Below, in pieces: positions 15,780 to 44,488 of a stretch of DNA of 64,000 bases (positions within the stretch are counted from its first letter, which is position 1; each line of letters begins with the position of its first letter). A program made the position numbers and the translations under genes. Origin of the DNA: Deltaproteobacteria bacterium (GTDB taxonomy: Bacteria > Desulfobacterota > Desulfomonilia > UBA1062); contig DAOPXM010000009.1 in the NCBI GenBank assembly GCA_035352355.1, positions 39,957-103,956 of the forward strand. The letters run 5' to 3'. The notes under the pieces are model-generated. The model was not told the origin of the DNA. It searched no databases and saw nothing but the letters and a program-made list of their open reading frames with translations.

Positions 15780-16340
15780 ATGGACAAGAAATCAGAACAT
15801 CCCGACGAGAGCATCCTTTCCGCGCTCCAGGGGGTGAAGAAGCGCGCGGCCAACATCCTCGACCTGGTGGAAGAAACCATCAGGGGCGTGCCGATACCCG
15901 AGACCGTCACCGTCTCGATGACGAAGAGCATCGCGGATCCGATCATGTGGATCGATGCCGAACGGGTCCGGAAGGCACTGGCAGACCTCATGATCAACGC
16001 CGTCGAGGCCATGCCCGAAGGCGGCGAGCTGGCCATCGGCATCGAGGGCGACCGCATCCAGGTGATCATCACCGTAAGCGACACGGGAAGGGGCATCTCG
16101 AAGGAAAACATGGACAACATCCTCATCCCGTTCTTCACCACCAAGCCCCCGGGCGAAGGGACGGGCCTGGGTCTGGCCACGGCCTATGCCACGGTGAAGA
16201 TGCATTCCGGGAAACTCGAGATCGAGTCGAATGCGGACCCCGACGCAGGCCCCACCGGGACGAGCGTCAAGATCGCCCTGCCCAGGGGCAGACAGATCTA
16301 CCTCGACTCCGCGAGGCTCATCATCCACGACGACGAGTGA
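15780..16340 (+). CDS. stand-alone HATPase_c (histidine-kinase-like ATPase) lacking a recognisable H-box
   Basis: N-box [10 protein letters not shown]1 DTGRGIS, F-box PFFTTK and G2 GTGLGLA. Only about 55 aa precede the catalytic domain, with no HExxxP-type phosphoacceptor motif, TM or sensor domain. Confidence 0.75.
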
Positions 16341-16471: not shown

Positions 16472-17992
16472 ATGAGAGGGAAGATCGGGTTCGACAACGA
16501 GAAATACCTCAGGGAACAGACGCATGAGATCCTCGAGCGGGTGGAGCGGTTCAACAACAAGCTCTATCTCGAGTTCGGGGGAAAGCTCCTGTACGACTAC
16601 CACGCGGCACGGGTCCTGCCGGGGTACGACCCCAACGTCAAGATGAGGCTCCTGCACGAGCTCAGGGACAAGGCGGACATCATCCTGTGCATCTATGCCG
16701 GCGACATCGAGCGCAAGAAGATCAGGGCGGACTTCGGCATCACCTACGACTCGGACGCCATGAAGCTCATCGACGACCTCAAGACCTGGGGCATCGACGT
16801 CCTGGGCGTCGTGATCACGCGCTTCGAAGGCCAGCCCGCCGCCATCCTGTTCAAGAACAAGCTCGAGCGGCGGGGCGTCAAGGTCTATACCCATCGCTTC
16901 ACGAAGGGCTATCCCACGGACATCGACCTCATCGTTTCCGACGAGGGGTACGGCGCCAACGCCTACATCGAGTCGGACAAGCCGCTGGTGATCGTGACGG
17001 GCCCCGGGCCCGGCAGCGGCAAGCTCGCCACGAGCCTCTCGCAGCTCTACCACGACTACCGGAGGGGGAAGAAGGCCGGGTATGCCAAGTTCGAAACCTT
17101 CCCCATCTGGAACCTGCCCGTGATGCACCCGGTGAACATCGCCTACGAGGCGGCCACCGCGGATATCCGGGACTTCAACCTCATCGACCCGTTCCACCTC
17201 GAGGCCTACGGAAAGACCGTGGTGAACTACAACCGCGACGTGGACGCCTTCCCCGTGCTCAGGCGCATCCTCGAGACGATCACCGGCGGGGAGTCGTTCT
17301 ACAAGTCGCCCACGGACATGGGCGTGAACCGAGCCGGTTTTGCCATCGTGGACGACGAGGTGGTCCGGGAGGCCTCGCGCCAGGAGGTGATCCGCCGCTA
17401 CTTCCGCTACCAGTGCGAATACGCCATGGGCTTTGCGGACAAGGAGACCGTGCAGCGCGTGGAGCTGCTCATCAAGGATTTCGGCATCTCGCCCGAGTAC
17501 CGCTCTGTCGTGACGCCGTCCAGGGATGCGGCCAGGGAGGCCCAGATGGACGAGACAAAGGGCAACGAGGGGATCTACTGCGGGGCGGCCATCGAGCTGA
17601 AGGACGGGTCCATCGTCATGGGCAGCAACTCCCCCATGATGCATGCCGCCTCGAGCCTCATCCTCAAGGCCATCAAGCACCTGGCTGAGATCCCGGGAAA
17701 GATCGAGCTGCTACCCGACAACATCATCGAGTCCATCAGAAACTTCAAGACCGAGATCCTGGGGGAGAAGTCCGTGAGCCTCGACCTCGAGGAGACGCTC
17801 GTGTCCCTGAGCATCAGCGCCATATCGAACCCGGCGGCAAGGCTCGCCCTGGAGAAGATAAAGGAGCTCAAGGGGTGCGAGGTGCACATGACCCACATCC
17901 CGACGCCGGGCGACGATGCGGGCCTCAGGAGGCTCGGGGTCAACGTGACGAGCGATCCGAACTTCGCCACGAACAACCTTTTCATCTCCTGA
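16472..17992 (+). CDS. DUF1846/UPF0371-family protein
   Basis: The N-terminus GFDNEKYLREQTHEILERVERFNNKLYLEFGGKLLYDYHAARVLPGYDPN is characteristic of this family from memory; 506 aa. Confidence 0.8.
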   Translation: MRGKIGFDNEKYLREQTHEILERVERFNNKLYLEFGGKLLYDYHAARVLPGYDPNVKMRLLHELRDKADIILCIYAGDIERKKIRADFGITYDSDAMKLIDDLKTWGIDVLGVVITRFEGQPAAILFKNKLERRGVKVYTHRFTKGYPTDIDLIVSDEGYGANAYIESDKPLVIVTGPGPGSGKLATSLSQLYHDYRRGKKAGYAKFETFPIWNLPVMHPVNIAYEAATADIRDFNLIDPFHLEAYGKTVVNYNRDVDAFPVLRRILETITGGESFYKSPTDMGVNRAGFAIVDDEVVREASRQEVIRRYFRYQCEYAMGFADKETVQRVELLIKDFGISPEYRSVVTPSRDAAREAQMDETKGNEGIYCGAAIELKDGSIVMGSNSPMMHAASSLILKAIKHLAEIPGKIELLPDNIIESIRNFKTEILGEKSVSLDLEETLVSLSISAISNPAARLALEKIKELKGCEVHMTHIPTPGDDAGLRRLGVNVTSDPNFATNNLFIS

Positions 17993-17995
17993 GGG

Positions 17996-19177
17996 TCAGA
18001 TCTTTTCCACCTCGACGTATTTCCCTCGCTCGGTGAGGACCTGCACGAGCTCCCTGACGTACACCATGCGCATGGGCTCCCCCCGGATGATGTCCGCCAC
18101 CTGGTTCGGGTTGATGGCGGAGCCCACGATGAGGCGGATCTCGTCGGCCAGGAGCAGGGAGCGGGCGAGCTGGGTCGAGGCGTCGTTGTCATGGGGGAGG
18201 TCGTAGATGGTCTTCGACGTCCTCAGGATCTCCGCGGCCAGGCCCAGGGTGAGGATGCCCTCGGTGACGAGGTCGACCCCCTTCAGGCGCGCCGTGGGAG
18301 GCGATCCCTTCTTAGGTGCCGGCTCGTTCTGGCCCCGCTTCGAGGGGGGGACCCAGTTCACCACGAGCTCTTCCTTGAGCACCCGGGCCGCCAGCTGCGC
18401 CGTGGATCCGCCGCAGATGATCTTCTCGCCCTCGGAGGCCATGAGCCTCGAGACCGCGAACTCGTCGAGCTCCTTGTTGGCAGGCGGCCCCGTGAGCACG
18501 GTGGCGGTGATGGCGGGCCTGACCTTCATGCCCACCACGGTGGCGTCGTCCCCGGGCTTGTCGTCGTAGAGCTTTCTGCAGGTGTTCGTCAGGGCCTGGG
18601 TGAGCTTGTAGGTGTCGATGATGCCGGCCTTCAGGAAGCGCTGCACGGCGAGCGCGATGTTGTCCCACCCCCAGCCCAGCCGGTAGATGCCTCCCAGGCC
18701 GGCGTGGACGTACCCGTCGCTGATCATGATCATGAAGTCGTTTTCCTGAAGCGTAAAACGGGCCTCCCGGATCTTCCGGTCCTTCACCATGCGCTCTTCC
18801 ATGGGCAGCTTCACGATGGCGTGGTCCCTCACGAAGATCAGGGGGGGGCAGTCGAACTCCACGAGGTGGGCTTCCTGGCCGTTCTTCACGGTGAGCACCG
18901 CGAACGTGGCATAGGCGAGCTTGCGGACGCTGCACTCGGGCAGGGTCTCCACCAGGGTCTGGAGCACGTCTTCGAGGGGCGCCCCGGATTCGAACATTCG
19001 GGCGGCGATCTCGGACGTGAGCGTGGAGAGGATGCTCGCCTTGACGCCCGACCCCAGGCCGTCCGAGAGCACGGCCACGAAGGTGTCCGCCGTCTTGCGC
19101 ACCATGACCGAATCCCCGCACAGCTCCTCGTTGGCCTTGTTCAGGTACGACCAGGAGTATTCGACGATCTGCCTCAC
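17996..19177 (-). CDS. SpoIIE/PP2C-family Ser/Thr phosphatase with an unassigned C-terminal domain of about 150 aa
   Basis: CGDSVMV...FVAVLSDGLGSGVKASI...ATFAVLTV...MISDGYVHAG. The GTG start at 19177 overlaps the upstream stop (GTGA). The track ORF extends to 19759, which lies inside the upstream gene. Confidence 0.85.
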   Translation of the reverse strand: MRQIVEYSWSYLNKANEELCGDSVMVRKTADTFVAVLSDGLGSGVKASILSTLTSEIAARMFESGAPLEDVLQTLVETLPECSVRKLAYATFAVLTVKNGQEAHLVEFDCPPLIFVRDHAIVKLPMEERMVKDRKIREARFTLQENDFMIMISDGYVHAGLGGIYRLGWGWDNIALAVQRFLKAGIIDTYKLTQALTNTCRKLYDDKPGDDATVVGMKVRPAITATVLTGPPANKELDEFAVSRLMASEGEKIICGGSTAQLAARVLKEELVVNWVPPSKRGQNEPAPKKGSPPTARLKGVDLVTEGILTLGLAAEILRTSKTIYDLPHDNDASTQLARSLLLADEIRLIVGSAINPNQVADIIRGEPMRMVYVRELVQVLTERGKYVEVEKI

Positions 19178-20892
19178 TTGCCGCCTTCCTCCCCGAGGAG
19201 CTTCGCCAGGTGGGAAAAGATGGTCTTGCTCTCGGCCGTGGTCTCGCCCAAGAGGTGGGCGATCTCGTGGGCCACGCGCATCTGCTTGCTCACCACCTCG
19301 CGAGTCCTCTGGAGCGTCTCTTCGCGGATGGCGTTGAACTTCTCCTTCTCCCTCTCCCGCTCGGTGACGTCGCGGATGACGGCCACCAAGAGTCCCTGGC
19401 CCTCCACAGGAACCACGGTCTGCTTCGTGACGATGTCTTCCCTGATGCGGCAGGCCTTGGCGTACACCGGCTGCTTCGTGTCCCTCACCGAGATGTAGTC
19501 GTCGAGCACGGACACGAGGGTCGACAGGTGCTTGCCCTCGACGTCGGCGAGCTTGCACTGGAAGAGGGCCTCGGCGGAGGGCGACATGTCGTTGATGATG
19601 AGGTTGTTGTCGAAGATGATGATGGCGTTGGGGATGAGGTCCATCACGACCTGGCGCAGGGATTCGGAGCGGCTGCGCATGTTGGGTATGCACATGGTGG
19701 CCTCGGCCATGCCCCTCAATGTCGCCACCGCCTTTTCCCGGCAGCTCGAGTAGCCGCACGCCCCGCAGTTGAGCTCGTCCTCCCTGGTGTACTTGTTGAC
19801 CCTGTGGAGCACCTCCTGGATCTGCTCTTCGGAAAACTCCGGGACGTAGACCTTGCGGTCCCGGTATGTCCGGGTCAGGTCAGGCCATTCCTCACGGGGG
19901 ATGTGAAGGTCGTTCTGCCGCCTGGCGTTGAACTCGATGATCTTCTGCCGCGCCAGGTAGAGGCTTCCGGAGAGGCCGGCCATGGCAGGCCCGTTGACGC
20001 ACCCGCCCTTGCAGGCCAGGAGCTCCACGATGCCCGCTTTGAGCGTGCCGGCCCGGATGTCCGAGAGGATGTCACCAATGGAATCGAGCCCGGAGGCCAC
20101 GATCATGGAGCCCTCGAGGATGTCCGTGTTCATCCTGGCGGTGCCGACGAGCCCGCCTTCGATGGGGAAGAGGCGCGCCATCTCCGGGGTCGCCTCACTG
20201 GAGGGCTCTTCTCCCGGCTGCAGGGTCACGCCGTTCTCGATGAAGAGCTCGAGCAGCCCCCGGAAGGTGATGACCGCGTCGATCACCCCCGATACCGACT
20301 CGGCGTGCATCTCCGCCTTCTTCGCTATGCAGGGCCCCACGAACACGACGTATGCGTCTTCTCCGTACTTCTTCTTGAGCAGGCGGCCGTGGGCGATCAT
20401 GGGGGACACGATGGGCGCCAGGTGGCCGATGAGGTCGGGGTGATACTGCTCGATGAGGTTCACCACCACCGGGCACGACGAGGTGATGATGGGCCAGCGG
20501 TCCCGGTTAGCCTCCATGTATTCGCGATGGGCGAGACCCACGATCTCGGCGCCGATGGCCGTCTCTTCGGCCGCATGGCAGCCCAGATCGAGGAGGGCCT
20601 TTTCCATCTCGGCAAAGCTGCCCATGTTGAAGAAGGCCGGCGCCGACGGCGCCACCGAGGCCACGATCTTGAGACCCCTGTCCCTGGCCCCCTCGATCTC
20701 CTGGCGGGCGCTCTGGATGCTCTTGGCCTCCTGGGGACAGACGCGCACGCAGGTGCCGCAGATGATGCAGAGCTCTGGCACCACGTTGGCCTGGTGCTCC
20801 TTGACCCGGATGGCCTTGACGCCGCAGTTGCGCACGCACAGGTAGCAGTCGCGGCAGCGGGCGGGGTTGGTCATGATGACCGGTTCGTTCAT
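19174..20892 (-). CDS. sensory-type [FeFe]-hydrogenase-like protein with a C-terminal PAS domain (HydS/HfsB-like)
   Basis: N-terminal 2x CxxCxxCxxxC. H-domain motifs are TSSCP, GPCIAKKAE and ELLACKGGCVNGP. A PAS-like segment follows (LIPNAIIIFDNNLIINDMSPSAEALFQCKLADVEGKHL). Start is the ATG at 20892 with AAGGAGGGA upstream. Confidence 0.85.
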   Translation of the reverse strand: MNEPVIMTNPARCRDCYLCVRNCGVKAIRVKEHQANVVPELCIICGTCVRVCPQEAKSIQSARQEIEGARDRGLKIVASVAPSAPAFFNMGSFAEMEKALLDLGCHAAEETAIGAEIVGLAHREYMEANRDRWPIITSSCPVVVNLIEQYHPDLIGHLAPIVSPMIAHGRLLKKKYGEDAYVVFVGPCIAKKAEMHAESVSGVIDAVITFRGLLELFIENGVTLQPGEEPSSEATPEMARLFPIEGGLVGTARMNTDILEGSMIVASGLDSIGDILSDIRAGTLKAGIVELLACKGGCVNGPAMAGLSGSLYLARQKIIEFNARRQNDLHIPREEWPDLTRTYRDRKVYVPEFSEEQIQEVLHRVNKYTREDELNCGACGYSSCREKAVATLRGMAEATMCIPNMRSRSESLRQVVMDLIPNAIIIFDNNLIINDMSPSAEALFQCKLADVEGKHLSTLVSVLDDYISVRDTKQPVYAKACRIREDIVTKQTVVPVEGQGLLVAVIRDVTEREREKEKFNAIREETLQRTREVVSKQMRVAHEIAHLLGETTAESKTIFSHLAKLLGEEGGK

Positions 20893-20935
20893 GCGGTCCC
20901 TCCTTCGGTGCTGCTGGCCGTGGCCATATGGCGCC

Positions 20936-21202
20936 CTACTTCTTGAGCAGGGCGCTGTTTGCCCTGGGCAGGATCTCCCGGTGGAAGAACCCCTCCGCAT
21001 CCTCGGGTCGGATGCCGCTGAACGCGACATCGCCCACGCGGACGGAGACCCCCTTCGAGCAGGTGTCCATGCAGAAGGCTCCGACGATGTCCACCAGTCC
21101 GGTCAGGCTCTCCTTCTCGATGAGGCGCTGGAACTCGGCTGCAAGCTCGTCAGAGCCGCGGATGCTGCATGAGCTGCCGACGCATATGGTCACGATGAGC
21201 AT
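20936..21202 (-). CDS. thioredoxin-like [2Fe-2S] ferredoxin
   Basis: MLIVTICVGSSCSIRG (Cx4C) and FCMDTC (Cx3C); 88 aa. Lies 13 nt downstream of the fusion hydrogenase stop. Confidence 0.75.
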   Translation of the reverse strand: MLIVTICVGSSCSIRGSDELAAEFQRLIEKESLTGLVDIVGAFCMDTCSKGVSVRVGDVAFSGIRPEDAEGFFHREILPRANSALLKK

Positions 21203-21215: not shown

Positions 21216-24200
21216 TCACCCGTCGAGCAGCGACGCGAGATGGGTGTCAATGAACCCGGCGGCGTCGGCCGTGTCGATGCCGGAGATGATCTTCTGGCCC
21301 ACCACGACGTTTGGCCCGCCTTCGCACTGGCCGGTGCAGAACCGCGCCTTGATCCGGAAGCGCTCCGAGAGCCCCCTGCGCCTCAGCTCGGCCGCGAGGC
21401 CCTCGAGGAGCTTCCAGGACCCCTTGACATAGCAGTTCGTGCCGATGCAGACCCCCACGTCGATGACGGGCAGCTCCTTCAGGATCACCTCGGCCTGCTT
21501 TTCCTCGAACCGCATGGAGCGGCGGCGGTAGGTGGTGTGGAGCGCGTGGTGCGACGTCTCGCTCACGGGCTGACCCAGCCAGTTTTCGTATATGGCCTGG
21601 ATGGCGGGGTTGTCCTGGCTCTTCCTCACGGGCGCCTCCTGGTCGAGCCGGTAGAGGACCTCGAGACGCGCCGCCGTGTCGCTGGCAATCTCGGGCGCAG
21701 GGTTGCCTGAGCCGTTGATGCAGCCGCCGGGGCAGGCCATGACCTCGATGAGGTCGTAGGGGGCGTCGCCGGAGCGGATGCGGTCGATGAGGTTCTGGGC
21801 GTTCTGCAGTCCGCTCACCACGGCAAGCCTCACCGTGACGTCACCTAAGGTCACGTTGGTCTCCTTCACCCCCTGCAGGCCGCGCACGCCTTCGTAGGTG
21901 AAGCTGTCGAGGCGCTTGCCCGTGACCCGCTCTGCAGCCAGGCGGAGCGCCGCTTCAGCCACGCCGCCGCTGGCCCCGAAGATGACGCCCGAGCCGCTCG
22001 CCTTGCCGAAGAAGGTGTCCACCGGGATGGGTTCGATGGCCTTCGGGTCGATACGGCGTTCGGAGAACATCCCGATGACGTCGTTCGTGGTGAGGACCAC
22101 GTCCACGTCCGCTATGCCGTCGTGGCTGAACTCCGGCCTCGCGGCCTCGTACTTCTTGGCGTTGCAGGGCATGATGGACACGAAGTAGAGGAGCGCCGGG
22201 TCCACCTTGAGCTGTCTGGCGAAGTACTGCTTCATGACCGCGCCGAACATCTGCTGGGGCGACTTGCAGGAAGACAGGTGTGGCAGGATGTCCGGTGCCA
22301 TCTTCTCGCAGTAGTTGATCCAGGCCGGGCAGCAGGAGGTGATCTGCGGCAGCACCCCGCCCTCGGCGAGGCGGCTCAGGAACTCGGTGCCCTCCTCCAT
22401 GATGGTGAGGTCCGCCGCCCAGCAGGTGTCGAAGACGAAGTTGAAGCCGAGCCGCTTGAGACCGGCGCTCAGGACGGCCATGGCATCCTCGGGGGAGATG
22501 CCGTAGTGCTGGGCGAACGCTGCCCGCACGGCCGGTGCGATCTGGGCCACCACCGTGAGCTCCGGGTTCTGGAGCGCCCTGTACACCTTGGGGAGCACCG
22601 GCTTCATGACCAGGGCGCCGGTGGGGCAGATGGAGGCGCAGTGGCCGCAGGCCACGCAGGTGGTCAGATCGAGGGGCCGGTGGTCGTTGGGTCCGATGGT
22701 GAGGACGCCCTTGGTCTCGTGGAAGCTCAGGGCGGACACGCCCTCCATCTCGCGGCACACCTTGAGGCACAGGCCGCACAGGATGCACTTGCCGGGGTCC
22801 CGGGTGATGATGGGGTGATTGTCGTCGACCGGCAGGGGCGTCGCCGGAAGCGTGTGGTCGATCGTGACGTCGTAGAGAGTCGCGCAGTCCCGCAGGTCGC
22901 ACCCGTAGCGCTCGGTGCAGCCGCACGCCAGGCACCGGGCCGCCTCGTCCATGGTGGTGTCCATGTCCCAGGTCTTCGACGACTCGTCGAAGGTCCCCTT
23001 CCTCGATTCAGGGGAGAGGACCGCGATCTCCCGGCGCTCGGCAGGCCTCACGCCCTTGAATTCCTCCGCCGGGATATCCTTCCAGCTCCCCTTCGAGCAG
23101 GTGTAGGGCTCGGGGGGAAGTTCGACCGTACCGGTCCGGATGAGGGAGTCGATGGCCTCGGCAGCCCTCCTGCCCGCGCCGATGGCGGCGATGGCGATGT
23201 CCGGCCCAGTGACGCAGTCCCCGCCCGAGAACACCCAGGGGTCAGCGGTCTGCATGGTCACCGGGTCTGCCTTGATGTTGCCCCATTTGTCCAGCAGGTT
23301 CGCGTTGCCCACGCTGGCAGCGTCCACTGCCTGGCCGATGGCCGAGATGATCGTGTTGGCGGTGATGGTGAAGTCCGAGCCCGCCACCGGGACCGGCCTC
23401 CTCCTGCCGCTCTTGTCCGGCTCGCCCAGCTCCATGCGGGTACAGGTCATCTGGAGCATGGAGCCGGCCTGCCTGATGGAGACGGGCGCCGTGAGGTACT
23501 GGATGTTCACCCCCTCCTCGATGGCCTCCTCGATCTCGATCTCCTGGGCGGGCATCTCGTGGCGGGTGCGGCGGTAGGCGATGGTCACGTCCCTGGCACC
23601 CAGCCTGAGCGCGCTGCGGGCAGCGTCCATGGCGGTGTTGCCGCCGCCGATGACGAGGACCCTCTCCCCGATGTCGGGCTTTTCGCCCCTGGCCAGCCTG
23701 GCCAGGAAGTCGAGGCCGGACATGACGCCGGGCAGGTCTTCGCCGTCGACGCCGATGGCGGTGGCCTTCTGGGCCCCCAGGCCTATGAACACGGCCGTGA
23801 ATCCGTCGCGCTTCAGGGACTCGATGGTGAAATCACGGCCGAGCTTCTTGTTGTACCGTATCTCGACACCCAGGTCGAGGATGGACCTGATCTCCTCGTC
23901 GAGCTGCCTTTCCGGCAGGCGGTAGTAGGGGATGCCCCAGCGGAGCATGCCGCCTGCTGCCTCCTGCATCTCGAAGATGGTCACGCTGTGGCCTTTCCTC
24001 CGGAGGAAGTACGCGGCGGTGAGGCCTGCCGGGCCGGCGCCCACCACGGCAACCTTCACGCCGGTGTCCGGTGCGCACTCGGGCGAGTAGGGGGACAGCT
24101 GGTACCGGTCCCAGTCCGCCACGAAGCGCTTGATCGCGTTGATGTTCACCGCGCCGTCCACCGCGTTGCGGCGGCACTCGGACTCGCAGGGATGGGGGCA

Positions 24201-24638
24201 GACGCGGCCGCAGACCCCGGGCAGGGGATTGCTCTCCTTGATGACCTCGAGGGCCTCGGCGAAGTTGCCCGAGGATACGTGATAGATGTATTTCTGGATG
24301 TCGATGTTGGCCGGGCACCTCTGCACGCAGGGGGCCACGCAGTCGCCGTAGTGGTTCTTGAGCAGGCCCTGGAGGTAGATCCGGCGGTAGCTCGTCAGCG
24401 CGTCCGATTGGGTCCTAACGATCATGCCCTCGGAGACACGGGTCGAAGTGGCGGAGACGAACCTGGTCTTTCCCCCTTCGATGACCTCAACGAACGCGAC
24501 TTCCACCGTGCTCGGGGCGCTGACCCTCGGGTCGTAGCCCAGTGCCGGGATGGAGATGCCGTGTGCCCGTGCTGCGTCGATGATGGTCGTGGTGCTGTCC
24601 GCTGTACACATTTTGTCGTCGATGGTTAAGGTGAGCAT
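21216..24638 (-). CDS. [FeFe]-hydrogenase fused to a GltD-like NAD(P)H:FAD module (glutamate-synthase-linked, group A2-like), with a C-terminal Trx-like [2Fe-2S] domain
   Basis: Domain order: Cys-less ferredoxin-like N-domain; GltD Fe-S (CVAPCVQRCP, GVCGRVCPHPCESECRRN); two Rossmann motifs (VVGAGPAGLTAA, VIGGGNTAMDAA); 2x[4Fe-4S] (CILCGLCLKVC, CVACGHCASICP); H-cluster motifs TSCCPAW, MPCNAKKYE and EVMACPGGCINGSG; SSU-like tail; then CIGTNC...CTGQC. Start set at the second ATG (24638), 5 nt after GGAGG; the track ORF runs to 24725. Confidence 0.9.
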   Translation of the reverse strand: MLTLTIDDKMCTADSTTTIIDAARAHGISIPALGYDPRVSAPSTVEVAFVEVIEGGKTRFVSATSTRVSEGMIVRTQSDALTSYRRIYLQGLLKNHYGDCVAPCVQRCPANIDIQKYIYHVSSGNFAEALEVIKESNPLPGVCGRVCPHPCESECRRNAVDGAVNINAIKRFVADWDRYQLSPYSPECAPDTGVKVAVVGAGPAGLTAAYFLRRKGHSVTIFEMQEAAGGMLRWGIPYYRLPERQLDEEIRSILDLGVEIRYNKKLGRDFTIESLKRDGFTAVFIGLGAQKATAIGVDGEDLPGVMSGLDFLARLARGEKPDIGERVLVIGGGNTAMDAARSALRLGARDVTIAYRRTRHEMPAQEIEIEEAIEEGVNIQYLTAPVSIRQAGSMLQMTCTRMELGEPDKSGRRRPVPVAGSDFTITANTIISAIGQAVDAASVGNANLLDKWGNIKADPVTMQTADPWVFSGGDCVTGPDIAIAAIGAGRRAAEAIDSLIRTGTVELPPEPYTCSKGSWKDIPAEEFKGVRPAERREIAVLSPESRKGTFDESSKTWDMDTTMDEAARCLACGCTERYGCDLRDCATLYDVTIDHTLPATPLPVDDNHPIITRDPGKCILCGLCLKVCREMEGVSALSFHETKGVLTIGPNDHRPLDLTTCVACGHCASICPTGALVMKPVLPKVYRALQNPELTVVAQIAPAVRAAFAQHYGISPEDAMAVLSAGLKRLGFNFVFDTCWAADLTIMEEGTEFLSRLAEGGVLPQITSCCPAWINYCEKMAPDILPHLSSCKSPQQMFGAVMKQYFARQLKVDPALLYFVSIMPCNAKKYEAARPEFSHDGIADVDVVLTTNDVIGMFSERRIDPKAIEPIPVDTFFGKASGSGVIFGASGGVAEAALRLAAERVTGKRLDSFTYEGVRGLQGVKETNVTLGDVTVRLAVVSGLQNAQNLIDRIRSGDAPYDLIEVMACPGGCINGSGNPAPEIASDTAARLEVLYRLDQEAPVRKSQDNPAIQAIYENWLGQPVSETSHHALHTTYRRRSMRFEEKQAEVILKELPVIDVGVCIGTNCYVKGSWKLLEGLAAELRRRGLSERFRIKARFCTGQCEGGPNVVVGQKIISGIDTADAAGFIDTHLASLLDG

Positions 24639-26698: not shown

Positions 26699-29600
26699 AT
26701 GAAGGTCTTTCGAGCTCATATACTGGTATGCGGCGGTACCGGCTGCAGGGCGTCCGGAAGCGAGGACGTCCATGGGGCAGTCGTCAGGGAAATAGCGGCA
26801 AAAGGGCTCTCAGATGAGGTCGCCATCGTCGAAACCGGCTGCAACGGTTTCTGCGCAGCAGGCCCCATCATGGTCATCTACCCCGAGGGCACCTTCTATC
26901 AGTACGTCAAGAGTGACGACGTAAAAGAGATCATCGAAGAGCACATCATCAAGGGCCGCCCGGTCCAGAGGCTCATGTACAGGGAGCCCGTCACCGAGAA
27001 GGCCATCCCCCACATGCTCGACATCCCCTTCTTCGGCAAGCAGCAGCTCATCGCTCTGAAGAACAGGGGCCTCATCGACGCCGAGAAGATCGACGAGTAC
27101 ATCGCCCGCGACGGCTACCTGGGCGCTGCCAAGGCGCTCACCGAGATGACCCAGGACGAGGTCATCGAGGAGGTGAAGAAGTCCGGTCTCCGCGGCAGAG
27201 GCGGCGGCGGTTTCCCCACCGGCATGAAGTGGCAGTTCGCCAAGAAGTCCCAGAGCGACATCAAGTTCATCCTCTGCAACGCCGACGAGGGCGACCCGGG
27301 CGCGTTCATGGACCGCTCGGTCCTCGAAGCCGACCCCCATGCAGTGCTCGAGGGCATGATCATCGGCGGCTATGCCATCGGCGCCAACAAGGGCTACATC
27401 TACTGCCGGGCCGAGTATCCGCTGGCCATCAAGCGCCTCGACATCGCCATCCGGCAGGCCAAGGAGTACGGCCTCCTGGGAGAGAACATCCTGGGCTCCA
27501 ACTACTCCCTGGACATCGAGGTCTACCAGGGCGCAGGCGCGTTCGTCTGCGGCGAAGAGACCGCGCTCATGGCATCCATCGAAGGCAAGCGCGGCATGCC
27601 CAGGCCCAGGCCCCCATTCCCTGCATCCCAGGGCCTGTGGAAGAAACCCTCGGTTCTAAACAACGTCGAAACCTTTGCCAACATCCCGCAGATCGTCCTG
27701 AAGGGTGGGGCATGGTACTCCTCCATCGGCACCGAGCGCTCCAAGGGCACCAAGGTGTTCGCGCTCACCGGTGCGGTGAACAACGTGGGTCTGGTGGAAG
27801 TCCCCATGGGCACCCCCATCGGCGACATCATCTTCGACATCGGCGGCGGCATCCCGGGCGGCAAGCAGTACAAGGCGGCCCAGCTGGGCGGCCCCTCCGG
27901 CGGCTGCATCCCGGCCTCGGCGCTGAACACACTCACCGACTATGAAGAAATCATCAAGCTCGGCGCCATCATGGGCTCCGGCGGCCTCATCGTCATGGAC
28001 GAGGACACCTGTATGGTGGACACGGCCCGGTTCTTCATGGAGTTCTGCCAGGAAGAGTCCTGCGGCAAGTGCACCCCGTGCCGTGAAGGCACCAAGCGCA
28101 TGCTTGAGGTCCTCCACCGGATCTGCCACGGCGAAGGCAAGGATGGGGACATCGAGCTCCTCGAAGAGCTCGCGGCCACCATCAAGGACTCCGCGCTCTG
28201 CGGCCTCGGCCAGACGGCCCCCAACCCCGTGCTCTCCACCATCCGCTACTTCAGGGACGAGTACGAGGCCCACATCTACGACAAGAAGTGCCCGGCAGCG
28301 GTGTGCTCCTCGCTGTTCAAATCCCCATGCCAGTCCGCATGCCCCATCGAGATGGACGTCCCGGCCTACATCGCGCTGATCAGGGCGGGCAGGCTGGAAG
28401 ACGCCTACAGGGTCATGCTCAGGACCAACCCGTTCCCCGGCGTCTGCGGCCGCGTGTGCCCGCAGTTCTGCGCCTCGAAGTGCCGCAGGCAGCAGCTCGA
28501 CGAGCCCATGGCCATCGCGTGGCTCAAGCGCTACATCGCAGACAACGGACGCAAGCCCGTCATCGAAGCCGTACCGGTCACCCGCAAGGAAAAGATCGCG
28601 GTCATCGGCGCAGGCCCGGCCGGTCTCACCGCTGCACAGGACCTGGCGAAGCGCGGCTACAAGGTAACGGTGTTCGAAGAGCTTCCCCATGCGGGCGGCA
28701 TGATGCGCTACGCCATCCCCGAGTACCGGCTCCCGAGAAACATCATCGAGGAAGAGGTGAAGGACATCGAAGCCCTGGGTGTCGAGATCAGGACCAACAC
28801 CAGGGTAGGCAAGGACATCACCTTTGACAAGCTCCGCAAGGACTATGACGTGGTGATTCTCGCAGTGGGCGCGCACAAGAGCTGGACGCTGGACATCGAG
28901 GGCGAAGACCTCCAGGGCGTCTGGGGCGCAACCGAGTTCCTCAGGGAAGTCAACCTGGGCAAGGACGTGAAGATCGGCTCCAAGGTCGCCATCGTGGGCG
29001 GCGGCAACTCCGCCATCGACGCGGCGAGGACCGCCGTGCGTCTCGGCGCCGGCGACGTCACCATTCTCTATCGCAGGGAGCGCAAGGACATGCCTGCCTG
29101 GGAGCATGAGATCGTGGCAGCCGAGCACGAAGGCGTGAAGATCGAATACCTCGTGGCCCCCGTGAAGCTCGTGGGCGAGAAAGGCAAGCTCACCGGCGTG
29201 GTCTGCCAGAAGATGAAGCTGGGCGAGTTCGACCGCTCCGGCAGGCGTAAGCCGGTCCCCATCCCCGGCAGCGAGTACACCATCTCCATCGACACCATCA
29301 TCCCGGCCATCTCCCAGTCGTCCGACACCACCTTCATCCCCGACGGGTCCGACGTGAAGAAGGACAAGTGGGGCGGCATCGAGAAGGTGGCCAAGAGCAA
29401 AAACAGGACGCTCGCCAAGGGCGTGTACATCATCGGCGACGCGGCCACCGGGCCGGCCACGGTGGTGGAAGCCATCGCCATGGGCCACGACGTGGCCAAG
29501 GACGTGGACGCCTCCATCAGGGCCTGGAACAACGAGCCCGCCTACAGGGAGCCCGAGGCCGATAAGATCGACATCCCGTTCGAGGTGAACGAGGAGCTTG

Positions 29601-29740
29601 TCGTCACGCCCAAGGAGTTCATGCCCGAGAAGGAGATCGCGGCGAGGGTGGCCAATTTCGCAGAGGTCGAGTTGGGCTACACGAAAGAAAAGGCCTACAA
29701 AGAGGCGTGCAGATGCCTCAGGTGCGATGCGGAGCTGTAA
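26699..29740 (+). CDS. hndC: NuoF-like flavoprotein subunit (HndC/HydB) fused to a C-terminal GltD/NfnB-like NAD(P)H oxidoreductase
   Basis: Trx-like N-domain (LVCGGTGC...CNGFC). NuoF core (GGGGFPTGMKWQF, ESCGKCTPCREG). Then KKCPAAVCSSLFKSPCQSACP, GVCGRVCPQFCASKCRR, VIGAGPAGLTAA and IVGGGNSAIDAA; 1013 aa. Confidence 0.9.
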   Translation: MKVFRAHILVCGGTGCRASGSEDVHGAVVREIAAKGLSDEVAIVETGCNGFCAAGPIMVIYPEGTFYQYVKSDDVKEIIEEHIIKGRPVQRLMYREPVTEKAIPHMLDIPFFGKQQLIALKNRGLIDAEKIDEYIARDGYLGAAKALTEMTQDEVIEEVKKSGLRGRGGGGFPTGMKWQFAKKSQSDIKFILCNADEGDPGAFMDRSVLEADPHAVLEGMIIGGYAIGANKGYIYCRAEYPLAIKRLDIAIRQAKEYGLLGENILGSNYSLDIEVYQGAGAFVCGEETALMASIEGKRGMPRPRPPFPASQGLWKKPSVLNNVETFANIPQIVLKGGAWYSSIGTERSKGTKVFALTGAVNNVGLVEVPMGTPIGDIIFDIGGGIPGGKQYKAAQLGGPSGGCIPASALNTLTDYEEIIKLGAIMGSGGLIVMDEDTCMVDTARFFMEFCQEESCGKCTPCREGTKRMLEVLHRICHGEGKDGDIELLEELAATIKDSALCGLGQTAPNPVLSTIRYFRDEYEAHIYDKKCPAAVCSSLFKSPCQSACPIEMDVPAYIALIRAGRLEDAYRVMLRTNPFPGVCGRVCPQFCASKCRRQQLDEPMAIAWLKRYIADNGRKPVIEAVPVTRKEKIAVIGAGPAGLTAAQDLAKRGYKVTVFEELPHAGGMMRYAIPEYRLPRNIIEEEVKDIEALGVEIRTNTRVGKDITFDKLRKDYDVVILAVGAHKSWTLDIEGEDLQGVWGATEFLREVNLGKDVKIGSKVAIVGGGNSAIDAARTAVRLGAGDVTILYRRERKDMPAWEHEIVAAEHEGVKIEYLVAPVKLVGEKGKLTGVVCQKMKLGEFDRSGRRKPVPIPGSEYTISIDTIIPAISQSSDTTFIPDGSDVKKDKWGGIEKVAKSKNRTLAKGVYIIGDAATGPATVVEAIAMGHDVAKDVDASIRAWNNEPAYREPEADKIDIPFEVNEELVVTPKEFMPEKEIAARVANFAEVELGYTKEKAYKEACRCLRCDAEL

Positions 29741-29779: not shown

Positions 29780-31582
29780 ATGGCGAATGTCAATGTAACT
29801 ATTGATAATATAAAAGTCAGTGTCGAAGAGGGATCCACCATCCTCGATGCGGCCAAGGCCGCCGGCATCAAGATACCCACCCTGTGCGCATGGCCTGAGA
29901 TCGATCACAGACCCGGCGCATGCAGGGTGTGCGTAGTCGAGGTTGACGGTCAGAGGAACCTCGTCGCCTCCTGCGTGTTCCCGGTGAACGAGGGCATGGT
30001 GGTCAAGACCACCACGGAGCGGGTGCGCAAGGCAAGGAAGCTCAACGTCGAGCTCCTGCTTTCGAACCACCCCACCGAGTGCAACGTCTGCGTGCGCAAC
30101 GGCAACTGCGACCTCCAGGTCGTGGCCGAGGCCGTGGGCCTGCGCGAGGTGCGCTTCACGTATCCCCAGTACGTTGCAACAGACTATATCGACGACTCGA
30201 GCCCGTCCGTGGTGCGCGACGCCCGGAAGTGCATCAAGTGTTACCGCTGCGTGACCGTGTGCGACCAGGTACAGACCGCCTCGGTCCTGTCCCCCACCTT
30301 CAGGGGCGACGACGTGCGCATCGGCCCGGCGTTCAACCTGCCGCTGCTCGAAACCAACTGCACCAACTGCGGACAGTGCATCCTGGCCTGCCCGGTGGGC
30401 GCCCTGTACGAGAAGGACGACACCGAACACGTCTGGGCTGCGCTCAACGACCCCACGAAGCACGTGGTCGTCCAGGAGGCCCCGGCCATCCGCGCGGCCC
30501 TGGGCGAGGACCTCGGCATGCCGATAGGCTCCCTGGTCACGGGCAAGATGCTCACGGCCTTGAGGAGGCTCGGCTTCGACAAGGTGTTCGACACCAACTT
30601 CACGGCGGACCTCACCATCATCGAGGAAGGCAACGAGCTGCTCCAGCGGGTGAAAACCGGCGGGAAGCTCCCCATGATCACTTCGTGCTCGCCCGGTTGG
30701 ATCAAGTTCTGCGAGCACTTCTATCCCGACCTCCTCGACCACCTCTCCACCTGCAAGTCGCCCCAGCAGATGATGGGCGCCCTCATCAAGACGTACTACG
30801 CCCAGCAGGCGGGCATCGACCCCAAGGACATCGTGTCGGTCTCCATCATGCCCTGCACGGCCAAGAAGTTCGAATGTCAGCGTGATGAGATGCGGGACAG
30901 CGGGTATCAGGACGTGGATTACGTGCTCACCACCCGTGAGCTCAGCCGCATGATCAGGCAGGCGGGCATCGACTTCGCGAGCCTGCCCGATGGCGACTAC
31001 GACAACCCCCTCGGCGAGTACACCGGCGCCGGCACCATCTTCGGCGCAACCGGAGGCGTCATGGAAGCGGCCCTTCGCACGGTGTACGCCGTGGTCACCG
31101 GAACCAATCTCGAAAGCCTCGACATCACCCCGGTCCGCGGACTCGAGGGCGTGAAGGAGGCGGCGGTCGAGGTCGGCCCCCTGGGCAAGGTCAAGGTTGC
31201 CGTCGCCCATGGGCTCAGCAATGCACGTAAGCTCATGGACAGGATCCGTGAAGGCACGGCCGACTATGCCTTCATCGAGGTCATGTGCTGCCCCGGCGGC
31301 TGCATCAGCGGCGGCGGACAGCCCATCGCGCCCAGCAACGAAAAGAGGATCCAGCGCTCCGCAGCCCTCTACAAGGATGACAATGCGGTGCAGAAGTTCC
31401 GCCAGTCTCACGAGAACCCGTCCGTGAAGAGGATCTACGAGGTCTTCCTCAAGGAGCCCCTCGGACACAAGTCCCACGAGCTGCTCCACACGCACTACTG
31501 CAAGCGCGGCACCGATCTGCCCCATGTGAAGGGTGCGGAGCTCGAGGTGAATGAGGAACACGCGACGAAAGCAGCACACTAG
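29780..31582 (+). CDS. hndD: [FeFe]-hydrogenase catalytic subunit (HndD/HydA, M3-type with SSU-like tail)
   Basis: 2Fe-2S (CAWPEIDHRPGACRVC), His-ligated cluster (HPTECNVCVRNGNC), 2x[4Fe-4S], and H-cluster motifs TSCSPGW, MPCTAKKFE and EVMCCPGGCISGGGQP; 600 aa. Confidence 0.95.
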   Translation: MANVNVTIDNIKVSVEEGSTILDAAKAAGIKIPTLCAWPEIDHRPGACRVCVVEVDGQRNLVASCVFPVNEGMVVKTTTERVRKARKLNVELLLSNHPTECNVCVRNGNCDLQVVAEAVGLREVRFTYPQYVATDYIDDSSPSVVRDARKCIKCYRCVTVCDQVQTASVLSPTFRGDDVRIGPAFNLPLLETNCTNCGQCILACPVGALYEKDDTEHVWAALNDPTKHVVVQEAPAIRAALGEDLGMPIGSLVTGKMLTALRRLGFDKVFDTNFTADLTIIEEGNELLQRVKTGGKLPMITSCSPGWIKFCEHFYPDLLDHLSTCKSPQQMMGALIKTYYAQQAGIDPKDIVSVSIMPCTAKKFECQRDEMRDSGYQDVDYVLTTRELSRMIRQAGIDFASLPDGDYDNPLGEYTGAGTIFGATGGVMEAALRTVYAVVTGTNLESLDITPVRGLEGVKEAAVEVGPLGKVKVAVAHGLSNARKLMDRIREGTADYAFIEVMCCPGGCISGGGQPIAPSNEKRIQRSAALYKDDNAVQKFRQSHENPSVKRIYEVFLKEPLGHKSHELLHTHYCKRGTDLPHVKGAELEVNEEHATKAAH

Positions 31583-41968: not shown

Positions 41969-42370
41969 TTGAAAAGTGAGGTGAGATTGAGGCTTTCAGA
42001 GATCAGGGACCTATTGGACGCCAAGGTGATCACGGGTGAGGACAAGCTCGACCTGGACATCACCACGGCGTTCGGCGCTGACCTGATGAGCGACGTGCTG
42101 GCATTTGCCAGGTCCGGATGCCTGCTCATCACCGGCCTCTCGAACCCGCAGTCGGTGCGGACCGCCTATGCGCTGGACATCGCGGCCATCCTGGTGTGCA
42201 GGGGCAAACCGCTCGCCGACAAGTTCATCGAGATCGCCCGTGAGCTCAGCATCCCCATCCTGTGGACCAGACTGATCATGTTCGAGGTATGCGGCAGGCT
42301 CTACCAGGAAGGACTGACCGGCTGCATCTGCCAGGCGAGCGGGACAGAGGAAAAGCACCTTGCCAAGTGA
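41969..42370 (+). CDS. DRTGG-domain protein
   Basis: LSEIRDLLDAKVITGE...FGADLMSDVLAF...LLITGLSNPQSVRTA...ILVCRGK. Non-ATG start (TTG at 41969; GTG/TTG alternatives lie within 20 nt). Confidence 0.75.
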   Translation: MKSEVRLRLSEIRDLLDAKVITGEDKLDLDITTAFGADLMSDVLAFARSGCLLITGLSNPQSVRTAYALDIAAILVCRGKPLADKFIEIARELSIPILWTRLIMFEVCGRLYQEGLTGCICQASGTEEKHLAK

Positions 42371-42797
42371 CGAATACCTCGAAGGGATCTACTACATCCA
42401 GGGCAGGGACTTCGTCGATGCCGGGGTGGTTTCCAGCGAGATCAAACGCACGCTGAAAGACAAGGGCATACCCGAGAACATCATCCGCAGGGTTGCCATC
42501 ATCGCCTTTGAAGCCGAGGTCAACATCATCTCCTATGCCGACCAGGGAACCATCCAGCTGTTCATCGAGCCGGAAGCCATCACCATCGAGGCCGTGGACA
42601 TCGGGCAGGGGATCCCGGACATTGAGCAGGCCCTGGTGGAGGGGTTCTCCACAGCGGACGACGCCATCCGGGAGATGGGCTTTGGCGCCGGTATGGGCCT
42701 GGCCAACATCAAGAAGTCCTCGGACATTTTCAAGCTCGCCTCGGAGCCGGGCAGTGGGACTCATCTGACGAGCATCATCAAGCTCAATGGACAATAA
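42360..42797 (+). CDS. GHKL-type ATPase, anti-sigma-factor/Ser-Thr-kinase-like (RsbW-like), no H-box
   Basis: FEAEVNII (N-box-like), DIGQGIPD (G1) and GFGAGMGLANI (G2); 145 aa. TTG start with AGAGGA 8 nt upstream; 11-nt overlap with the previous gene. Confidence 0.7.
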   Translation: MPSDEYLEGIYYIQGRDFVDAGVVSSEIKRTLKDKGIPENIIRRVAIIAFEAEVNIISYADQGTIQLFIEPEAITIEAVDIGQGIPDIEQALVEGFSTADDAIREMGFGAGMGLANIKKSSDIFKLASEPGSGTHLTSIIKLNGQ

Positions 42798-42815: not shown

Positions 42816-43157
42816 ATGACCCTTGAAACCCTTGTGGAACAGCTCAACCTGAAATGCAAATGCTGCTGGGAGAAGCTGAAAACCACCGAGATCAAAGGCG
42901 GCTATGCCGGCGATCTCCTCAGCGACGTCATGGCAAACAGCCAGGAGGGGAACGTCTGGGTGACCAGACAGGTCCATGTGAACATCGTGGCTGTGGCTTC
43001 CCTGAAGGAGCACGCCGGCATCGTCATCGTCCAGGGCGCCAACCCTGAGAAGGACACCATCGACCGGGCCACCCGGGAAGGCATTCCCATCATGGTGAGC
43101 GACCTGCCCGAGTTCGAGCTGGTGGGAAGGATCTACCAGCTCATCCAGAACGGGTGA
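42816..43157 (+). CDS. DRTGG-domain protein (second copy, N-terminal CKCC)
   Basis: YAGDLLSDVMAN...VWVTRQVHVNIVAVASL...IVIVQGANPEKDTIDRATREGIPIM. AAGGAG RBS. Confidence 0.75.
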   Translation: MTLETLVEQLNLKCKCCWEKLKTTEIKGGYAGDLLSDVMANSQEGNVWVTRQVHVNIVAVASLKEHAGIVIVQGANPEKDTIDRATREGIPIMVSDLPEFELVGRIYQLIQNG

Positions 43158-43940: not shown

Positions 43941-44488
43941 AGCTTTCCCTGCACATCCTCGACATTGCCGAAAACTCCACCAGGGCGAACGCCTCCCTCG
44001 TCGAGATCACCGTGACGGAGGATCTTGTCAACGACGTCTTCTCCTTCGAGATCAGGGACAACGGCGACGGCATGGACAGTCAGACCATCGAGAGGGCCAT
44101 GGACCCCTTCTACACCACGAAGAAGGTCCGCAGGGTGGGCCTCGGGCTCCCCATGCTGGCCCAGGCGTGCGAGCGGGCAGGCGGGCGCTTCGAGATCGAG
44201 TCGGTCGTGGGCGCTGGCACCCGGGTGTACGCGGGCTTCAGGCACTCCCACATCGACCGGCAGCCCCTGGGCGACATCGCAGGGGTGGTGAGCATGCTCA
44301 TCCTCGGCAACCCGGAAAAAGACTTCCTTTACACTCACGTCATCAACGGGAGCGTCTACTCCCTCGACACCCGGGAGATCCGCCGGGAGCTGGGCGACAT
44401 CCCGCTCAACCACATGGAGGTGATCAACATGATCAGGGACAACATCCAGGAAGGCATCCTCGAGCTCAGGGAGATGCATGCGGCCTAG
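43934..44488 (+). CDS. GHKL-type ATPase (HATPase_c-like), no H-box or receiver
   Basis: LHILDIAENSTRANA (N-box), IRDNGDGMD (G1) and VGLGLPMLAQ (G2); 184 aa. 7-nt overlap with the PHP gene. Confidence 0.7.
   Translation: MLELSLHILDIAENSTRANASLVEITVTEDLVNDVFSFEIRDNGDGMDSQTIERAMDPFYTTKKVRRVGLGLPMLAQACERAGGRFEIESVVGAGTRVYAGFRHSHIDRQPLGDIAGVVSMLILGNPEKDFLYTHVINGSVYSLDTREIRRELGDIPLNHMEVINMIRDNIQEGILELREMHAA

Follow-up and report, generated by a model that had tools for sequence, protein, structure and literature searches.

A putative sensory [FeFe]-hydrogenase linked to a small ferredoxin and a PP2C phosphatase: a widespread gene trio and its Syntrophales version

Main finding

We analysed a 64,000-nucleotide (nt) stretch of the metagenome contig DAOPXM010000009.1 from a Deltaproteobacteria bacterium (positions 39,957 to 103,956; hereafter the window), and in particular three adjoining minus-strand genes that encode a small thioredoxin-like (Trx-like) ferredoxin, the putative sensory [FeFe]-hydrogenase HydS and a PP2C-type phosphatase. 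Comparison with related loci, 170 in all, suggests that the three proteins probably form a signalling core of the kind found beside NAD(P)-linked hydrogenases in many anaerobes, in the HfsA/HfsB/HfsC arrangement, in which HydS would control the activity of the phosphatase. On the evidence of these loci, the trio belongs to an already described and very common type (C3/Hfs-like), and the copy in the window is an ordinary one; the Syntrophales version is distinct by its detached kinase catalytic domain, its orphan phosphatase domain and its invariant output helix. A sequence-only reading of the same DNA had proposed a sensory-type HydS co-transcribed with a PP2C, and layout, motifs and gene linkage bear out this core of it.

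The four genes on the minus strand between 24725 and 17996 (a catalytic fusion hydrogenase, the ferredoxin, HydS and the phosphatase) stand base for base in the order given by that reading, with the same 13-nt and 43-nt gaps and the same GTGA overlap (Table 1). Independent Joint Genome Institute (JGI) gene calls on the source contig, a metagenome contig of 127.7 kb, give the ferredoxin, HydS and phosphatase identical lengths of 88, 572 and 393 amino acids (aa). Promoter-like hexamers on the minus strand are confined to 24819-24762, and no terminator-like site was found on that strand between there and 17996, a pattern that weakly supports a single transcription unit.

The sensor hydrogenase

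The Pfam matches of HydS are two Fer4 domains, Fe_hyd_lg_C, PF04060 and PAS. Residues 8-58 match Fer4, Fer4_7 and Fer4_10, and the eight cysteines there make up two N-terminal [4Fe-4S] motifs; behind the H-domain come an exact Cx2Cx4Cx16C motif for a further cluster and the PAS domain. The latter had been described as a PAS-like segment, and it is indeed found above two curated cut-offs, those of PF00989 (23.9 against 22.6 bits) and TIGR00229 (26.1 against 22.9). A stand-alone homologue of the PAS part, from locus L044 of our comparison, matches PAS_9 at 4e-10. According to Land et al. (PMC8163306), the Cx2Cx4Cx16C motif is present in M2e and M2f enzymes, a PAS domain follows it in M2f only, and the proton-path and methionine positions diverge in both; for instance, the M353 and M497 positions are Gly and Ser in TmHydS, and Ser and Leu in TamHydS. 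With the reference residues taken from that study, an alignment with the two group A enzymes of the window shows the proton path of HydS broken at C299 (Ser), E279 (His), S319 (Ala) and R286 (gap), and the active-site methionines replaced at M353 (Gly) and M497 (Leu), in agreement with the sensory call made earlier. This layout, together with the diverged positions, is that of group C (M2f), and HydS can be regarded by layout and motifs as a putative sensory hydrogenase of this type. When NCBIfam's catalytic-group models were compared with HydS, the best match fell below the cut-off for every group. Additionally, the linkage to a Ser/Thr phosphatase matches the class definition of HydDB subgroup C3, "phosphatase-linked (putative)" (PMC5037454).

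To judge which of these features belong to the family, we used a set of 57 full-length HydS proteins encoded directly upstream of the same PP2C family. The H-cluster ligands C140, C188, C294 and C298 are invariant in all 57, and glycine at the M353 position, present in 54, is the hallmark of the family. The C299 position holds Cys in 33 proteins, Ala in 13 and Ser in 8, and the M497 position holds Asn in 29, Ser in 11, Leu in 8 and Met in 5. With Cys at C299 in a majority, the loss of the first L1 cysteine is a variant and not a family rule. The deviations reported from the letters in L1, L2 and L3 (TSSCP, GPCIAKKAE and ELLACKGGC) are all present in the sequence; as a mark of the PP2C-linked family, this holds for the glycine at M353 and not for the loss of the first L1 cysteine.

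The phosphatase and its orphan C-terminal domain

The phosphatase is of the SpoIIE type. A profile comparison with SpoIIE (5mqh) gives E=1.7e-15, and the metal-binding aspartate motifs GD, SDGxGxG, SDG and DDxT are kept on that alignment, so its identification as a PP2C stands. A Foldseek search with the full-length model returned PP2C matches only, with SpoIIE (5mqh, E=6e-11) and RsbU on top and PPM1K among them, and we therefore modelled the C-terminal domain separately.

This orphan domain has about 172 residues, more than the 150 or so first estimated, and the statement that it could be assigned to no family has held. In its AlphaFold2 (AF2) model, a beta-alpha-beta sandwich, the predicted local distance difference test score (pLDDT) is 88.5 for the domain alone and about 90 within the full-length protein. 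Neither Pfam, searched with 25 members included, nor NCBIfam gave a match; the sole match of a profile search of PDB sequences was the SIS protein GmhA (E=0.029), and Foldseek against the PDB found generic Rossmann folds only (best E=1.2e-3, template modelling (TM) score at most 0.4). We rejected a DRTGG-like identity (hhalign probability 2%), and likewise a SIS- or MGS-like one, for which GmhA was the only lead, with no Pfam support among the 25 members and the same low TM scores. The domain carries the invariant motifs TGPP, CGG(S/T)TA, PP, G(I/V)DLVTEG..T, G.A.NP and GK, the first five of which each lie directly after a predicted beta-strand; in the model, this would be the usual site of the ligand or active-site crevice of Rossmann-like folds.

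An exhaustive search with residues 221-393 produced 647 clusters, nearly all of them matching at residues 225-385 of proteins of about 385 aa, and no informative alternative fusion was among the matches, which were SpoIIE proteins or fragments. Judged by this search, the domain is no add-on: it defines the family and is almost exclusive to this group of PP2C proteins. In two homologues from a representative search (P0132 and P0153) the PP2C motifs are degenerate (no DGxGxG, EG for DG, no DD) and the C-terminal motifs TGPP, ICGDTTA, DLVTEG and NP are intact. These two are possible pseudo-phosphatases, and they hint at a role of its own for the orphan domain.

Distribution of the trio

Among 8,000 scored candidates, 7,940 were homologues of the phosphatase. 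The top 120 of these match over the full length at 68-100% identity; those with a name belong to metagenome-assembled genomes (MAGs) of Syntrophales, Smithella or Syntrophus. For the gene neighbourhoods we scanned one genome per GTDB species, using 20 closer sequences (an alignment of 61 had given no conserved stretches); at least 594 species have a relative, and 80 loci were kept. The ferredoxin-sensor-PP2C trio is present in essentially all 80. In 74, a sensor open reading frame (ORF) comes to its end at most 260 nt before the PP2C gene; in 55 of these 74 the sensor stop lies between -7 and +3 nt from the PP2C start, as would be expected for translational coupling, and in at least 51 of them a homologue of the Trx-like ferredoxin is encoded no more than 400 nt ahead of the sensor. 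Genes for HydABC-type or monomeric hydrogenases adjoin the trio and recur among its neighbours, as do those for Rex (8 loci) and AdhE (9 loci). The lineages with the trio or its helix motif (see below) are Syntrophales, Anaerolineae, many Bacillota, Planctomycetota, Cyanobacteria, Spirochaetales and Atribacteria. Among the 954 clustered neighbouring ORFs of the 80 loci there is no kinase common to all lineages, and the lack of a kinase in the operon is therefore normal for the family. The remark that neither kinase nor regulator lies in the operon is true of the operon itself, but it describes nothing special, since the sampled loci share no conserved kinase and hfsABCD has none either.

A constant unit with exchangeable inputs

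The most conserved 20-residue stretch of HydS is its terminal helix, KQMRVAHEIAHLLGETTAESK, with a mean column conservation of 0.89 against 0.23-0.73 elsewhere. Its family pattern is KQMRVA[Q/H]EIAxLLGETTAExK, and the motif QM.VA[Q/H]EIA.LLGETTAExK occurs upstream of PP2C in 78 of the 80 loci, 74 times in a Q-type (VAQEIA) and four times in an H-type form; in Syntrophales contigs the helix is of the H-type (VAHEIAH) throughout. The helix was also considered as a universal H-box, an identity that we rejected because 74 of 78 loci have Gln in place of the His, there is no HisKA match and hhalign gives E=0.25.

The helix is kept even where PAS alone, or sCache-HAMP-REC, stands in place of the H-domain. 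In such loci the PP2C with its C-terminal domain always follows downstream and a gene for the Trx-like ferredoxin mostly precedes the sensor, which in cyanobacteria and Planctomycetota is a PAS-plus-helix protein of 166-188 aa. Since helix, ferredoxin and PP2C persist across different input domains, the constant unit is the ferredoxin, the PAS-helix and the PP2C with its orphan domain, and on this comparison the H-domain is one of several inputs to it. We infer that it is through the terminal helix that the sensor contacts the phosphatase.

Two groups of such loci may be described here. In a Planktothrix MAG (L044, 6224-12801) the genes for the ferredoxin, a 166-aa PAS-plus-helix protein and the PP2C lie within the hox operon of the bidirectional [NiFe] hydrogenase, in the order hoxU, hoxY, hoxH, trio, a 149-aa ORF without Pfam match, hypA and hypB; four further cyanobacterial loci (L061, L062, L067 and L075) also have the trio within a [NiFe] hydrogenase operon, the H-cluster sensor being absent. 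In Desulfomonile-type MAGs (L012, 7698-9992, as well as L015, L018, L019 and L021) a 762-768-aa sCache_3-HAMP-receiver-PAS sensor stands upstream of the same PP2C family; these sensors end in an LLGETTAETK helix, and the Trx-like ferredoxin gene is still found upstream.

A detached kinase catalytic domain in Syntrophales

The three GHKL genes of the window, which had been proposed as candidate kinases, each match HATPase_c without HisKA in Pfam and so lack an H-box, as had been noted. One of them, GHKL1 (15780-16340), tracks the module; those at 42360-42797 and 43934-44488 do not. GHKL1 is made up of a segment resembling DHp helix 2 and a CA domain whose N, G1, F and G2 boxes are all intact, and it lacks helix 1 and the H-box. 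Its best PDB match is the CA domain of KinB (E=1e-17), HK853 aligns from helix 2 on, and the four boxes are invariant within its family at 43-59% pairwise identity. All further Syntrophales-type contigs that we examined have a stand-alone HATPase_c gene of 170-186 aa next to the module; its placement takes three forms, and the flanks have otherwise nothing in common. The gene lies convergent right after the phosphatase in L002, L084/85, L086, L089, L090, L091, L093 and L115, and in L001 and L088 it stands upstream in the same orientation; in the window lineage only, the DUF1846 gene comes between phosphatase and GHKL1, which abut directly in the relatives. To describe the module as having no kinase partner is therefore misleading for Syntrophales.

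A search of metagenomes with the GHKL1 family found its closest outside relatives, 41-47% identical from residue 19-25 on, in single proteins of 658-674 aa in which HydS is fused to a kinase. The sensor part of these fusions has two [4Fe-4S] motifs, an H-domain with GPC and the Cx2Cx4Cx16C motif, and no PAS; the kinase part has a coiled coil, a DHp domain with the H-box LSAGIAHELNNPLG and a CA domain. Their genes lie downstream of HydABC, without PP2C, and correspond to the HydDB class C1, "histidine kinase-linked". The gene-fusion argument makes a physical partnership between GHKL1 and HydS most likely, and GHKL1 is most likely the kinase partner of the module in the Syntrophales lineage.

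Fusions of this kind, on the metagenome contigs L092 (5480-7498), L095-L106, L110 and L144, measure 658-793 aa overall. Most have SSDCP in L1, with Asp at the proton-relay position, GPC in L2 and LLCCEGC in L3; L110 and L144 have SSPCP in L1 and LLFCEGC in L3. A second, more distant GHKL-like gene is found about 1.2-1.6 kb beyond the fusion genes. At their C-terminus the GHKL1 proteins themselves have the semi-conserved sequence (I/V)I(I/L)H(D/E)(D/E)E (16320-16340 on the plus strand, and in the family alignment), which resembles the first strand of a receiver domain and is followed by the stop codon.

One could go further and regard HydS and GHKL1 of Syntrophales as a split histidine kinase, the helix VAHEIAHLLGE of HydS serving as DHp helix 1 with the H-box and GHKL1 supplying helix 2 and the CA domain in trans. 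Autophosphorylation of the His would be governed by H2, as in the fusions of HydS with a kinase, and its result would be modulated or read by the PP2C and the orphan domain. We consider such a kinase unlikely. The two halves fit each other at the joint, in that GHKL1 begins in DHp helix 2, without helix 1 and H-box, and the end of HydS coincides with the expected start of the DHp hairpin loop; the closest outside relatives of GHKL1 do carry an H-box in one ORF with HydS. When the profile of the helix is aligned with that of the fusion DHp, the best alignment lands exactly on the H-box but is not significant (E=0.25, 18 columns), and Pfam finds no HisKA in the HydS tail. His replaces the usual Gln in all 11 Syntrophales-type contigs with the helix read (L001, L002, L081-L091), and every His-type contig of this group that extends past the PP2C has GHKL1 (L082, L083 and L087 being too short); however, this co-occurrence covers about one clade and amounts to one evolutionary event, and the Anaerolineae locus L004 has the His form without an adjacent GHKL1. 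Gln, found in 74 of 78 helices, is not phosphorylatable as His is, and yet equally conserved. Moreover, a response regulator is absent nearby, PP2C enzymes act on P-Ser/Thr and not on P-His, and neither GHKL1 nor the HydS tail combines a DHp His and a CA domain in one protein, as a classical histidine kinase does.

Proposed mechanism and points against it

The working that we favour for the three-protein core comprises five steps. What we read directly are the domain make-up, the intact catalytic motifs and the linkage of the genes; steps two to five are what we infer. First, H2 would react slowly at the H-cluster of HydS, its group A proton path being disabled, with the small ferredoxin as the probable redox partner. 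Second, the change would be relayed through the region of the C-terminal cluster and the PAS domain to the terminal helix. Third, the helix would contact the phosphatase encoded by the overlapping next gene, probably via the orphan domain, and so set its activity. Fourth, the phosphatase would strip phosphate from a Ser/Thr protein target. Fifth, the opposing kinase in the Syntrophales lineage would most likely be GHKL1. Genetic work speaks for this scheme: in Thermoanaerobacterium, deletion of hfsA or hfsB raises adhE expression and ethanol yield, whereas deletion of hfsC or hfsD brings no such rise (PMC5707799, PMC11837493).

Several observations weigh against this scheme. The C-terminal cluster of TamHydS, a group D enzyme, is not reduced by H2, contrary to a simple redox relay (PMC13104023). 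With the proton-relay Cys kept in 33 of the 57 PP2C-linked HydS proteins, low turnover is no rule of the family. The homologues with degenerate PP2C motifs suggest that dephosphorylation may not be the sole or primary output. No STAS substrate is encoded among the operon genes, and tblastn with approximate SpoIIAA/RsbV queries, a search of low sensitivity, found nothing below E~1 in the window. Finally, no GHKL1-type gene lies near the module in the loci sampled outside Syntrophales, so that the kinase assignment is not a general one.

A different output is conceivable in the form of a circuit resembling partner switching. Here, the SpoIIAB-like GHKL protein of an accessory cluster (Table 1) would phosphorylate one of the two DRTGG proteins encoded beside it and the HydS-controlled PP2C would reverse this, the output being the activity or expression of HydABC. 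The sequence-only reading had pointed this way in naming the DRTGG proteins as candidate substrates and the GHKL proteins as candidate kinases. Such a circuit appears improbable to us. The closest solved relatives of the PP2C are indeed SpoIIE and RsbU, and the GHKL gene at 42360-42797 matches both HATPase_c_2 and an anti-sigma F factor model; DRTGG proteins, however, have no STAS fold and no known role as phospho-acceptors. The cluster as a whole (DRTGG-GHKL-DRTGG-PHP-GHKL) is possibly connected to the module, since in L084/85 it lies directly after HydS-PP2C-GHKL1 and before HydABC, and in the Firmicutes loci L028, L042, L056 and L065 it stands beside HydABC-HydS-PP2C. In the window, on the other hand, it is 21 kb away from the module, it was found in only about 5 of the 80 sampled loci (10-kb flank), and its association is with HydABC (in Firmicutes, with a group D sensor) and not with the PP2C itself. 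As for its composition, the Firmicute loci have a group D-like HydS between the GHKL and PHP genes, where the window and L084 have a small DRTGG-like gene.

The weakest alternative, and in our view a very improbable one, is that HydS is no sensor but a slow catalytic or electron-transfer subunit working with the fusion hydrogenase and the ferredoxin, next to an unrelated, co-transcribed housekeeping phosphatase: its H-cluster ligands and accessory clusters are all intact, characterised HydS enzymes turn over H2 reversibly at low rates (PMC8163306), most family members keep the proton-relay Cys and reviews still call the sensory role putative (PMC8924675), but PAS-helix, PP2C and ferredoxin persist where the H-domain is absent or replaced, sensor and PP2C genes overlap tightly in 55 of 74 loci, hfsA and hfsB deletions have regulatory phenotypes, Gly occupies M353 in 54 of 57 members, and the window copy is without most of the group A proton path.

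Comparison with known systems

The resemblance to Hfs/HydS clusters that was noted at the outset is real, as the ferredoxin-HydS-PP2C trio matches the described HfsABC, and a Thermoanaerobacterales MAG in our sample (L038) has the same trio. The hfsABCD genes encode, in turn, a small protein (HfsA), a hydrogenase with PAS (HfsB), a Ser phosphatase (HfsC) and a catalytic hydrogenase (HfsD), and none of the four is a kinase (PMC11837493). Compared by description, the operon of T. saccharolyticum/thermosaccharolyticum thus shares with the window the three-gene core, a co-transcribed catalytic hydrogenase and the lack of an operon kinase. It differs in that HfsD is ferredoxin-linked, whereas the catalytic hydrogenase of the window comes first and is a GltD-fused, NAD(P)H-type group A enzyme, and in that the window module is accompanied by a stand-alone kinase catalytic domain. 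HydS itself resembles TmHydS of Thermotoga maritima (group C, M2f) and RaHydS of Ruminococcus albus, which also have two N-terminal [4Fe-4S] motifs, H-domain, Cx2Cx4Cx16C and PAS, Gly for M353 and no conserved proton-relay Cys (PMC8163306). At the M497 position the Leu of the window agrees with TamHydS, where TmHydS has Ser; its C299 position is Ser. In R. albus an adjacent Ser/Thr kinase has been proposed as the output (PMC5707799), while none is adjacent in the window. The HoxBC-HoxJ-HoxA system of Cupriavidus necator follows a similar logic, with a slow sensor hydrogenase, a PAS element and phosphorylation control of catalytic hydrogenases (PMC5707799, PMC8163306), but HoxBC belongs to the unrelated [NiFe] class and its output is a two-component His-Asp pathway with a DNA-binding regulator, none of which is linked in the window.

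The HydDB [FeFe] group C1 fusions (L092, L095-L106) have the same sensor core, and their fused CA domain is the closest outside relative of GHKL1. They differ from the window in having no PAS and no PP2C and in carrying a complete DHp with H-box in one polypeptide, where the window has helix 2 and CA as a separate gene. The SpoIIE/SpoIIAA/SpoIIAB and RsbU/RsbV/RsbW modules share with the window the PP2C type with intact metal motifs and nearby GHKL-type ATPases, but the regulatory domain of the window PP2C is C-terminal, Rossmann-like and unrelated to theirs, no STAS protein was found in the searches described above and no sigma factor is linked. GHKL-fold protein kinases and PP2C phosphatases also form pairs in mitochondria, namely PDK/PDP and BCKDK/PPM1K. 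By analogy only, GHKL1 and the PP2C of the window could act directly on a metabolic enzyme as such pairs do.

Neighbouring genes and other features of the window

The first gene of the unit encodes a catalytic fusion [FeFe]-hydrogenase whose longest ORF starts at 24725 and whose JGI call starts at 24638. Pfam and NCBIfam recognise a 2Fe-2S domain, a GltD-like NAD(P)H/FAD module, two [4Fe-4S] motifs, the H-domain, a small-subunit domain and a C-terminal Trx-like domain; the H-domain is of group A type, with canonical TSCCP/MPC/EVMAC motifs. The same hydrogenase precedes the module in L001, L084, L086, L089-L091 and L093. The small ferredoxin shares 31% identity (E=5e-12) with the C-terminal Trx-like domain of the fusion hydrogenase, and its four cysteines, spaced C7-x4-C12 ... 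C44-x3-C48, are kept in 62-63 of 63 homologues.

GltD-like NAD(P)H/FAD modules are present in both hydrogenase systems of the window, fused to a NuoF-like subunit of 1013 aa at 26699-29740 (+) and directly to the H-domain protein at 21216-24638 (-), which suggests an NADPH-linked H2 metabolism in the host organism. The HydA of the second, HydABC-type operon (29780-31582, +) has non-canonical motifs: ITSCSPGW in L1, with Ser for the second Cys (a cluster ligand in CpI numbering), and EVMCCPGGC in L3, with an extra Cys. Of the 28 group A-type HydA proteins in the sampled loci, 9 have TSCSP, always with MCC (6) or MGC (3) in L3, and the TSCCP proteins pair with MAC; a literature search for the TSCSP motif turned up nothing relevant. 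A formate dehydrogenase at 37459-40146 (+) was called as two ORFs that are one gene; the in-frame TGA that interrupts it (38512-38514), with HSSTV behind it, has the pattern expected of a selenocysteine codon.

Table 1. Features of the trio, its surroundings and the accessory cluster, with positions in the window
Feature	Position	Strand	Basis or remark
Catalytic fusion [FeFe]-hydrogenase	21216..24638	-	First gene of unit; Pfam, NCBIfam, gene call, alignment
Fusion hydrogenase stop (TGA)	21218-21216	-	Then 13-nt gap
Trx-like [2Fe-2S] ferredoxin, 88 aa	20936..21202 (ATG 21202 to TAG 20936)	-	HfsA position; weak PF01257 match; then 43-nt gap with GGAGG-like site
HydS, group C (M2f) putative sensory [FeFe]-hydrogenase, 572 aa	19174..20892 (ATG 20892 to TGA 19174)	-	Pfam, NCBIfam, orthologues
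HydS H-domain (aa 75-304)	19981..20670	-	Fe_hyd_lg_C, E=1.7e-50
L1 TSSCP	20484-20470	-	HydS H-domain
L2 GPCIAKKAE	20337-20311	-	HydS H-domain
L3 ELLACKGGC	20025-19999	-	HydS H-domain
C-terminal [4Fe-4S] motif, exact Cx2Cx4Cx16C (C376, C379, C384, C401)	19690..19767	-	PF04060
PAS domain (aa 408-518)	19339..19671	-	PF00989, TIGR00229
Conserved output helix (aa 536-556)	19225..19287	-	After PAS of HydS
SpoIIE-type PP2C, 393 aa	GTG 19177 to 17996	-	Start overlaps HydS stop as GTGA
SpoIIE-type PP2C domain (aa 1-221)	18515..19177	-	PF07228, E=1.9e-15; SpoIIE on residues 31-219
Orphan C-terminal domain (aa 222-393 and stop codon)	17996..18514	-	Predicted Rossmann-like alpha/beta fold, AF2 model
DUF1846 gene	16472-17992	+	Pfam; convergent, stop 3 nt from phosphatase stop
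GHKL1, stand-alone histidine-kinase catalytic domain, 186 aa	15780..16340	+	Pfam; convergent with operon
DRTGG	41969-42370	+	Accessory cluster (Pfam, NCBIfam, ORFs)
SpoIIAB-like GHKL	42360-42797	+	HATPase_c_2 and anti-sigma F factor model
Second DRTGG-like gene	42816-43157	+	No Pfam match
PHP	43194-43940	+	Accessory cluster
GHKL	43934-44488	+	Accessory cluster

Implications

In April 2026 the field still counted the partners with which sensory [FeFe]-hydrogenases interact as unidentified, and finding them was called critical (PMC13104023). It is the comparison with the 170 related loci, more than the locus by itself, that narrows this signalling question to three testable objects: the 21-residue helix of the sensor, the 172-residue orphan domain of the phosphatase, and the detached kinase catalytic domain of Syntrophales, which is related to the sensor fusions. 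A bolder generalisation, which we hold to be doubtful, would have the trio serve NAD(P)-linked hydrogenases in general for signalling, [FeFe] enzymes and the cyanobacterial [NiFe] Hox alike; the helix would dock on the orphan domain, and in Syntrophales the trio may in addition work as a split kinase, one H2 sensor then driving both kinase and phosphatase. In the literature that we searched, we found no description of the ferredoxin/PAS-helix/PP2C trio in such a role.

For syntrophic degraders of propionate and fatty acids, the partial pressure of H2 decides whether their metabolism is thermodynamically possible, which would give a dedicated H2-feedback circuit on an NAD(P)H-linked hydrogenase a central place in their physiology. 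Furthermore, the occurrence of the trio inside cyanobacterial hox operons would extend its relevance to photobiological H2 production.

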